IMG/VR virus record: IMGVR_UViG_2563366887_000002 | From: a virus | Lineage: Duplodnaviria; Heunggongvirae; Uroviricota; Caudoviricetes | Strand: one strand, 5' to 3' | Length of the DNA: 21,113 nucleotides | In this document: piece after piece, positions 6,391 to 7,656 of the stretch | How positions within the stretch are numbered: the first letter of the stretch is position 1 | Layout of the letters: every line of letters starts with the position of its first letter | Notes under the pieces: model-generated | What the model was told of the DNA's origin: nothing | Databases searched by the model: none | The model's input: only the letters and a program-made list of their open reading frames with translations | Position numbers and translations under genes: made by a program

Positions 6391-6611
6391 ATTTAATCCA
6401 ATCAATCAGAAAGACGAGTAATCATAGAGGTACTATCACCCGGGTAACTATTGCTATTATGAACGGATAGGATAGAGGCTTCAATAACATATGCATCAAG
6501 TATGATGGAATATGTAGGTGAAAATGACTTGTGTCAAATTTGTGGAAATGAGTACCATGTTTCTCTGAAATTGATGTCGTTAATGGCTAGTGATAGTGAA
6601 CTTTTTTACTT

Positions 6612-6617
6612 TATAAT
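6612..6617 (+). promoter_or_regulatory. Consensus -10 hexamer TATAAT about 30 nt upstream of the lipoprotein operon start
   Basis: Exact TATAAT read from sequence; no good -35 found. Confidence 0.25.
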
Positions 6618-6646
6618 TCCTTTGGTTATAACAATAAGGTAAATTT

Positions 6647-7207
6647 ATGAAGAAGATAATATTATTAGCCATGATTATTGGTTCTTTAACAGGTTGCGCT
6701 AGTGTGCCACCATTGAATTTTTCAACACCTAACGTGGGAGTTAGCTAGAAAAAAATAGATGCTGAAATTAAGTCATTAACGGTATCACTTGCTCGTCCAG
6801 ATGAGCAGAAAGGGGATATCACTGCTGGTATGGAGGCTATAACTCCAATTTGGCGTGAATCTTTGCAGGAAGCACTCGACCGAATGACTATTTTTCGTGA
6901 TAGTTCACCAAATACGGTTAGCTTAAATGTTAAAGTGTTGGCTCTTGACGTTCCTGCTTTTGGTGTTTCAATGACAACTAAAGCAATTGCAAGGTATGAA
7001 ATAATCAACCGTGCGAATGGTGATATTATATATACGCAGGATATTGAGTCTACCGGTACTGTTCCAGCCAGTTACGCATTCTACGGTATTGTTCGAGCAC
7101 GCGAATCTGTTAATCGCGCGGTGCAAAACAACATAACGCAGTTCTTGCAAGCATTAGAAAGTGTTGATCTTTCTCGTCCAATGTTTCCTGTTAGGGTAGC
7201 TAAATGA
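6647..7207 (+). pseudogene. Lipoprotein gene (lipobox LTGC) interrupted by an in-frame amber codon (TAG 6746-6748) after 33 codons; 153 further in-frame codons downstream
   Basis: MKKIILLAMIIGSLTGCASVPPLNFSTPNVGVS-TAG-KKIDAEIKSL...VRVAK; RBS AAGGT 7 nt upstream of ATG; ORF track reports only the 6830-7207 portion; ATGA overlap with next gene. Confidence 0.5.
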
Positions 7208-7656
7208 AGCGATTATTCGTAATTGCTCCACTCTTAGTGTTGGTTGGATGCGCACAAAATATATCGCCAAATAGTTATTCTGTTGGCTCTGTGGGCATGG
7301 TTAATCGAACTATCGCTGGTACAGTTATTAGTGCTAGGGGGGTTGATATCAGTGGGACTTCCGCGTTAGGCGGGACTGCTGGGGCTGCCGTGGGGGCAAC
7401 CGCTGGTTCTGCGCTTGGTGGGGGAGTTCGTTCTAATATCGTTGGTGCCGTTGGTGGTGCAGTCATTGGTGGTATTGCCGGGGCAGCAATCGAATCTTCA
7501 GCAACAAAACAAACAGGCATGGAATATGTTGTCGAAACTGAGAATGGGAATTTAATGACCATTGTTCAAGGCAAAGATCCGTTATTTACTCAAGGAAGTA
7601 AGGTCCTTGTTTTATACGGAAACCCTTCTCGCATAATAACAGACCCGCGTCACTAA
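7204..7656 (+). CDS. SlyB/Pcp-like glycine-zipper outer-membrane lipoprotein (150 aa)
   Basis: Signal peptide with lipobox LVGC; Gly/Ala-rich zipper (GTSALGGTAGAAVGATAGSALGGGVRSNIVGAVGGAVIGGIAGAAIESS); C-terminal region resembles SlyB as recalled; translationally coupled to upstream lipoprotein gene. Confidence 0.65.
   Translation: MKRLFVIAPLLVLVGCAQNISPNSYSVGSVGMVNRTIAGTVISARGVDISGTSALGGTAGAAVGATAGSALGGGVRSNIVGAVGGAVIGGIAGAAIESSATKQTGMEYVVETENGNLMTIVQGKDPLFTQGSKVLVLYGNPSRIITDPRH

Follow-up and report, generated by a model that had tools for sequence, protein, structure and literature searches.

The role of SlyB-type glycine-zipper lipoproteins, which wall off outer-membrane proteins and lipid under stress, has become understood only recently. 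The PhoP-regulated SlyB of E. coli and Salmonella (PDB 7ojf and 7ojg) consists of a lipobox, an N-terminal strand, a glycine-zipper hairpin and a C-terminal beta domain, and its gene has no coupled partner upstream. Here, we analyzed a 21,113-nucleotide (nt) stretch of Caudoviricetes DNA (IMG/VR record IMGVR_UViG_2563366887_000002), hereafter the window, on which a SlyB-like gene (gene 2) overlaps an upstream lipoprotein gene (gene 1) that carries an amber codon. All window coordinates refer to this whole stretch. On balance, the evidence tips slightly towards a mobile and coupled two-lipoprotein cargo operon with a SlyB-type role at the outer membrane, whose gene 1 is dead in this copy.

Other described systems resemble one or the other part of the pair. 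PqiC of the DUF330 family (XCC0632, PDB 2iqi; E. coli PqiC, 8q2c), LptE and PelC sit by a lipid anchor on the inner face of the outer membrane, as is predicted for the gene 1 product. Several of them form rings, PqiC being an octameric toroid at the outer membrane (PMC10897342) and PelC a dodecamer according to its PDB entry title. The envelope morons of lambdoid phages, namely bor, lom and the nmpC porin gene, and the ren-ybcN slot of the DLP12 prophage share with the pair an AT-rich composition of their own and alternative cargo in relatives. The prophage of the window itself also carries bor and a porin gene. Unlike these morons, the pair is a coupled unit of two genes and is common outside phages too.

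Gene 2 (7204..7656, plus strand) is a full-length homologue of SlyB and belongs to its family of lipoproteins, with the same length and architecture. Its 150-residue product aligns end to end with E. coli SlyB (7ojf_A) in a phmmer search of the PDB, residues 2-149 matching residues 3-155 with an E-value of 1.3e-14 and an identity of ~28%. The AlphaFold2 model, of moderate confidence with a predicted local distance difference test (pLDDT) score of 70, has a strand, helices at residues 55-71 and 75-101 and a C-terminal beta domain. Its sole PDB match with E <0.001 in a Foldseek search is 7ojf, titled 'SlyB13-BamA' (E 1.6e-8, template-modelling score 0.50-0.53).

The glycine-zipper helical hairpin takes up residues 55-101 (7366..7506, plus strand), where the two modelled helices and the Pfam-matched stretch of residues 55-97 coincide, and it has Gly positions that are invariant across 41 homologues. 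The Pfam scores of gene 2 itself are below the cut-offs (PF05433, 21.1 bits and E 3e-4 vs 24.2; PF13488, 16.9 vs 25). Many close homologues carry precomputed matches to PF13488 or PF05433. Unlike slyB, gene 2 lies on mobile cargo away from the chromosomal slyB locus and is coupled to an upstream partner lipoprotein gene.

Gene 1 (6647..7207, plus strand) encodes a predicted outer-membrane lipoprotein of 186 codons and is a pseudogene here. Its start ATG at 6647 is preceded seven bases upstream by AAGG at 6636-6639. The lipobox L-T-G-C (6686..6697, plus strand) ends with Cys17, which is invariant in 45 homologues and is followed by Ala at +2. The TAG at 6746-6748 is codon 34, beyond which the frame stays open up to TGA at 7205-7207. 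The original prediction, made from the DNA letters alone, had described the LTGC lipobox, the in-frame TAG after 33 codons and the open frame beyond it correctly at these positions. Only its read-through length of 153 codons and 187 residues needs correction, since there are 152 sense codons after TAG and the read-through product has 186 residues.

The two genes meet in an ATGA stop/start overlap (7204..7207, plus strand) typical of translational coupling, so the predicted overlap with a SlyB-like glycine-zipper gene is real. Gene 2 starts with this ATG at 7204, ends with TAA at 7654-7656 and has a ribosome site of its own in a weak AGGG eight bases upstream of the start. Its signal peptide and lipobox read MKRLFVIAPLLVLVGC|AQ, where LVGC ends with Cys16, invariant in 41 homologues and followed by a residue other than Asp at +2, and its centre is rich in Gly and Ala. 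Because Ala is at +2 after the lipid-modified Cys, Lol-dependent sorting to the outer membrane is expected for both proteins. Both are thus predicted to reside at the outer membrane.

The family of gene 1 is large. Its homologues number 512 in a word-index search and fall into 465 clusters at 50% identity in a representative library. Those of Klebsiella oxytoca, Edaphovirga, Bordetella, Xanthomonas, Stenotrophomonas, Luteimonas and others are 60-70% identical. Two motifs are highly conserved, PPLNFSxPNVG right after the lipid-modified Cys and PMFP close to the C-terminus. The Pfam and NCBIfam scans of gene 1 gave no family match, and a profile search of the PDB sequences with the gene 1 family gave only a chance match.

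The gene 1 product has a predicted alpha/beta fold of the LptE/PqiC/PelC type. If the model is right, the protein shares its fold class with outer-membrane lipoproteins whose roles are to plug or cap barrels, to bind lipid or to build rings beneath the membrane. The comparison of this model with viral structures in BFVD by Foldseek gave only uninformative matches with low template-modelling scores. Gene 1 differs from PqiC, LptE and PelC in that it matches none of their Pfam or NCBIfam models and has its own N-terminal PPLNFSxPNVG and C-terminal PMFP motifs. Moreover, no MCE, Lpt or Pel gene was found in the inspected neighbourhoods of gene 1.

The names given to gene 1 in databases are of little help. 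The intact allele is called a YajG family protein in RefSeq (Pfam PF03923, Lipoprotein_16). E. coli YajG is a lipoprotein of similar size with weak profile-to-sequence similarity, and the hhalign comparison of the gene 1 family alignment with the single E. coli YajG sequence has a probability of 74.6% and an E-value of 2.6e-5 over 119 columns that are partly signal peptide. PF03923 does not match gene 1 at E <=0.1 or any of nine distant family members at E <=1, while it finds E. coli YajG at 3.4e-52. Furthermore, yajG adjoins ampG and has no SlyB-like gene beside it. The YajG label indicates a remote relationship at best.

Gene 1 homologues are also widely named 'UDP-N-acetylglucosamine acyltransferase' in NCBI and UniRef entries (our P0001, P0003, P0021, P0041 and others), and the record of phage PhiR30_1 has 'acyltransferase'. 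This name seems to be a propagated misannotation because no family or fold match supports an enzyme.

The two genes travel as a conserved and translationally coupled unit. We collected 109 loci with a gene 1 homologue, 69 by a motif scan of genomes representing 185,579 species and 40 from IMG/VR. A SlyB-like gene follows directly downstream on the same strand in 99 of them. Among 81 distinct pairs, the gene 2 start could be assigned in 62, with a 4-nt overlap in 43, a 1-nt overlap in 10, a gap of at most 7 nt in six and a mis-assigned start in three. The distance matrices of the two proteins correlate over the 81 pairs (r 0.83). Around the 87 loci outside E. coli, no third gene is conserved beyond lineage-specific neighbours.

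The SlyB-like neighbour is missing at loci L114, L052 and L055 (both Photorhabdus), L064, L065, L077 and L115-L118. At L114, a different secreted protein of 95 residues is encoded after gene 1 (6564-6851 of that locus). In Photorhabdus, gene 1 is followed by a repeat-rich stretch, whose translation repeats 'VHCRTGSLE' and which looks like a repeat array rather than a gene.

The pair occurs in alpha-, beta- and gamma-proteobacteria on chromosomes, islands and temperate phages. The K. oxytoca pair occupies a stable non-phage site and the Xanthomonas pair adjoins pgaABCD. The Bordetella pair lies among toxin-antitoxin modules and insertion sequence (IS) remnants, that of an Alcaligenaceae genome adjoins a serine recombinase and that of Edaphovirga is beside a P4-like island. 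Three phage slots can be told apart: between ren and ninB in E. coli lambdoid phages, between the early-left genes and a CI-like repressor gene in Xanthomonadaceae-type prophages (L104 and L113), and between the tape-measure and minor-tail genes in a Serratia-type prophage (L101-L103 and L070, locus coordinates ~2665-7400). The Serratia-type slot, inside a lambda-like tail module before the first minor-tail gene, is unusual for cargo and makes a third independent insertion.

The original prediction had called for a search for the intact pair in other prophages, and it was found in phage PhiR30_1, at 21 E. coli-type IMG/VR loci and in the two further phage lineages. Its caveat that the pair might be a common housekeeping operon is half right. 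The pair is indeed common outside phages, and it is sporadic in variable contexts rather than housekeeping, with gene 1 in only 280 of 5,426 complete E. coli genomes (5%) and at 69 loci in the species scan. Gene 1 is present in a single genome among 50,697 deposited phages, and the plasmid collection has essentially no homologue of it.

Both proteins already have PHROG families, 12521 and 13877, which are labelled 'unknown function', and neither is matched in PADLOC. Our literature search found no paper on the pair or on PhiR30_1; a paper on prophages of avian pathogenic E. coli (PMC7724020) concerns unrelated genes. The pair is a phage moron, being a cassette against the phage backbone with a deviant composition and with differing positions in different phages.

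The amber codon (6746..6748, plus strand) is a CAG-to-TAG point mutation at codon 34. It is the single difference in 201 bases between the window and strain JNQH498, where the intact gene is annotated. We ran a 63-base probe centred on codon 34 against the 5,426 complete E. coli genomes, and 278 of the 280 carriers have CAG. The TAG allele is in the other two, FORC_081 (chicken, Korea) and CM2010-0578/1 (chicken, Australia), the latter with the same prophage at the same site as the former. CAG is also found at all 21 E. coli-type IMG/VR loci, five of which have the same deletion junction between recT and ren as the window. Thus, the deletion is older than the amber mutation. The amber is a recent, rare and lineage-specific null allele, not a property of the system.

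That the amber could be functional, either suppressor-dependent or read through by programme, or could be a sequencing artefact is scarcely credible. The fully open frame downstream of TAG speaks for function. It is not open by chance, since the same 186-codon gene is intact in 278 of the 280 genomes and at the 21 IMG/VR loci. An artefact, which had been allowed for at the outset, does not fit the same TAG in two independent complete assemblies from different countries. The window has no tRNA gene, and in FORC_081, where the tRNA-Gln genes were checked, no supE-type suppressor was found, as the four genes have normal TTG and CTG anticodons and glnV/glnX have the wild-type CTG. A suppressor-dependent or recoded gene was rejected, as the stop is not conserved among homologues and a suppressor tRNA is found neither in the window nor at glnV/glnX.

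Gene 1 is killed by the amber in an ordinary host, so that the predicted alternative of a dead or suppressor-dependent gene comes down on the dead side. Its translation would end after 33 codons and the ribosomes would no longer reach the ATGA junction. The stop, 456 nt ahead of that junction, abolishes the coupling, which would leave gene 2 with its weak AGGG as the sole site for translation. Probably, the local module has lost its function or consists of no more than its SlyB-like half. More speculatively, the amber allele would still give a lipopeptide of 17 residues that is the most conserved N-terminal motif, CASVPPLNFSTPNVGVS, and might keep partner binding.

As to the function, we favour, tentatively and at just short of an even chance, that the pair stabilises or remodels the outer membrane of the lysogen in the SlyB manner. 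With its glycine-zipper hairpin inserted, the SlyB-like subunit would assemble into oligomeric rings around outer-membrane proteins and lipid, as SlyB does. The gene 1 protein, made in a fixed ratio, would dock on the ring and either cap it or give it specificity. The lysogen's outer membrane would thereby be protected or remodelled, a conversion function like those of bor and the porin gene of this prophage. Such a function fits because the prophage carries other envelope cargo and many chromosomal copies have no phage nearby.

Several observations weigh against it. The physical complex of the two proteins is suggested solely by their coupling and co-inheritance, and the gene 2 model is of moderate confidence. 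About 10% of the gene 1 homologues have no SlyB-like neighbour, so gene 1 can work alone or with other partners. Loss of gene 1 is tolerated by two natural strains, which fits an accessory role and is silent on which.

The regulation is not favourable to it, either. Unlike slyB, the pair has no PhoP box (KGTTTA-N5-KGTTTA, up to two mismatches) upstream in 6236-6646, so stress regulation of the pair is not supported. Any expression of the cassette would need an internal promoter because pR is deleted. The predicted TATAAT is present at 6612-6617 and, with GTGATA 16 nt upstream, makes a sigma-70 promoter-like site (6590..6617, plus strand) with 10 of 12 consensus matches. It does not rise above chance, however, as six such sites were found in 6000-7900 vs 5.1 expected from shuffles, so it is only a candidate.

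The main rival is superinfection exclusion, which we consider possible and rather unlikely. The pair would act on a phage receptor from the periplasmic face of the outer membrane and sequester or distort it, blocking adsorption or injection. Outer-membrane lipoproteins of this kind are known, Llp and Cor acting on FhuA and TraT acting in conjugation. In three phage lineages the pair is cargo of the lysogeny type, in one of them next to a CI-like repressor gene, and SlyB rings enclose outer-membrane proteins (7ojf, SlyB13-BamA), the usual phage receptors. However, it has no sequence similarity to Cor, Llp or TraT and no match to any PADLOC model. Its many non-phage chromosomal copies are stable within species (K. 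oxytoca, Stenotrophomonas and Xanthomonas), which a host-envelope function fits better, and it is in the above single genome among the 50,697 of deposited phages. A somewhat bolder proposal, which we hold a shade less probable than exclusion, is a mobile two-component device, in which a SlyB-type ring is targeted by a dedicated LptE/PqiC-fold lipoprotein and is deployed by phages to confine particular outer-membrane proteins to nanodomains, be it their own or rival receptors or the porin encoded alongside.

An ordinary accessory envelope operon of proteobacteria, picked up by phages by chance and decaying with a cryptic prophage without any selected role for phage or lysogen, is a distinctly improbable reading. 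The pair is widespread in chromosomes at the 69 species-level loci, the prophage is heavily degraded and gene 1 is a pseudogene in two strains. Yet it is intact in 278 of the 280 E. coli carriers, even those with the old deletion, it was acquired independently at three different phage slots, and it is sporadic rather than core. Far less probable still is a toxin/antidote or abortive-infection pair, whose glycine-zipper protein would perforate the membrane under the restraint of gene 1. Glycine-zipper segments can form membrane pores, and the cassette is tightly coupled and mobile, often near toxin-antitoxin modules. However, gene 2 is a full-length homologue of SlyB, a protective protein, and PADLOC has no match. 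Moreover, two natural strains have intact gene 2 with dead gene 1, so gene 2 alone is not lethal. A role in lysis was rejected because the pair is not part of the essD-rrrD-rzpD cassette and is frequent outside phages as well.

The window derives from a DLP12-like defective lambdoid prophage at att-lambda. Its positions 1-16715 are 100% identical to the chromosome of E. coli FORC_081 by blastn. In the RefSeq gene order of that strain, the left end has ybhJ, ybhC, the integrase and excisionase genes, decayed early genes and a truncated recT abutting a truncated ren. Then follow the two lipoprotein open reading frames (ORFs), a ylcH-like ORF of 33 residues, ybcN (ninB-like), ninE, ybcO, rusA, ylcG and quuD. 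The ompC/nmpC-type porin gene, essD, rrrD, rzpD, bor, ybcV, ybcW, ylcI and nohD come next. At the right end, the terminase gene is cut short and fused to a fragment of a tail gene; the genes of a tail-fibre assembly protein and an AraC-type regulator, IS remnants, ybhB and bioA follow.

Decay of this prophage is far advanced: recT, ren, the terminase gene and tail genes are truncated, and there are other internal stops. The truncated recT/bet (5593-6012, minus strand) falls within the window stretch 5569-6039 that matches bet of PhiR30_1, and the 3′ remnant of ren (6037..6134, plus strand) matches PhiR30_1 from 6037 on. The two genes meet head-to-head at the deletion junction at 6037-6039, three bases common to both sides. 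Compared with PhiR30_1, the window lacks 6.4 kb from inside bet to inside ren, which comprises gam, kil, cI, cro, cII, O and P, and pL and pR are lost along with the immunity region. The recurrence of the junction at five of the 21 E. coli-type IMG/VR loci indicates that the defective lineage is widespread.

The intact phage PhiR30_1 (PV340558, host E. coli C) has the same pair, intact and 99.9% identical, between ren and ninB. Hence, the pair only seems to be beside recombination genes because the deletion fused recT/bet to ren. The original prediction had placed it in the immunity-region slot, but it lies between ren and ninB/ybcN as in PhiR30_1, and it is the immunity genes that are deleted. 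By blastn, the window is homologous to DLP12 of K-12 up to 6134 in ren and again from 7663, upstream of ylcH, and K-12 has emrE-ylcJ-ybcK-ybcL-ybcM between these flanks. As the flanks are equal and the genes between them differ, the cassette at 6135-7662 is cargo in a slot already known to vary.

This moron cassette of 1.5 kb (6135..7662) is AT-rich. Its G+C content is 0.31-0.43 over 6150-7700 vs ~0.52 in the flanks, with the Gly-codon-rich 7300-7500 as an exception. Both the AT-richness and the prophage cargo nature of the pair had been predicted and stand, the latter by the ren-ninB cassette and the alternative cargo of DLP12.

Within the cassette, a 68-codon ORF of uncertain status (6199..6405, minus strand) appears in the ORF list, and its small and very hydrophobic product would have two likely membrane segments. 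The ORF is a shorter hypothetical gene in PhiR30_1 and is unannotated in FORC_081. The Pfam, NCBIfam and PHROG searches gave no match to it, and it is not beside the pair in other genera.

Just 3′ of gene 2, the backbone sequence 7665..7726 (plus strand) folds as RNA into two hairpins, 7665-7682 and 7696-7726, at the point where the DLP12 homology resumes. Their folding energy is -25.3 kcal/mol with z -3.96 against shuffles. The second hairpin has an 11-bp GC-rich stem and no U-tract. With a loop of 9 nt and no T-run, they escaped the terminator scan. They may be a nin-region terminator or a recombination boundary.

Further to the right, a fragment of a tail protein adjoins what is left of the large terminase gene (window ~15535-18100; FORC_081 record 1813543-1816371). 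The fusion is followed by the tail-fibre assembly gene, the gene of the AraC-family regulator, IS/transposase remnants and then ybhB-bioA. The head genes and most tail genes are deleted, and the prophage is unable to form particles.

The prophage has three separate outer-membrane cargo units, the porin gene, bor and the lipoprotein pair. The porin gene (ompC/nmpC/OmpD-like, 380 codons, 9909-11051, minus strand) is intact in the window; it is split by IS5 in DLP12 of K-12 and has an internal stop in strain JNQH498. The gene bor (12781-13074, minus strand) has a perfect PhoP box, TGTTTAGGGTTTGTTTA, with no mismatch at 13127-13143 (minus strand), 53-69 bp upstream of its start. This is the sole perfect PhoP-box match in the window. 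As borD (vboR) belongs to the Mg2+/PhoP stimulon of E. coli, the box is probably the known site.

In summary, the local copy is a crippled and ordinary example in a decaying prophage, and the underlying pair is a widespread and unstudied variant of SlyB with a partner. Our analysis shows a SlyB paralogue that is coupled to a second lipoprotein and moves with it as a unit among chromosomes, islands and three kinds of temperate phage. The window copy is a natural null allele and can be used as a comparison strain. If the two proteins form a complex, gene 1 would encode the first partner dedicated to a protein of the SlyB family. The pair would then add a new class to the envelope cargo that phages carry and might affect phage susceptibility, tolerance to serum or antimicrobial peptides, and vesiculation. 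If the two-component device is true, phages would have a new way either to exclude superinfecting rivals or to harden the envelope of their lysogens.

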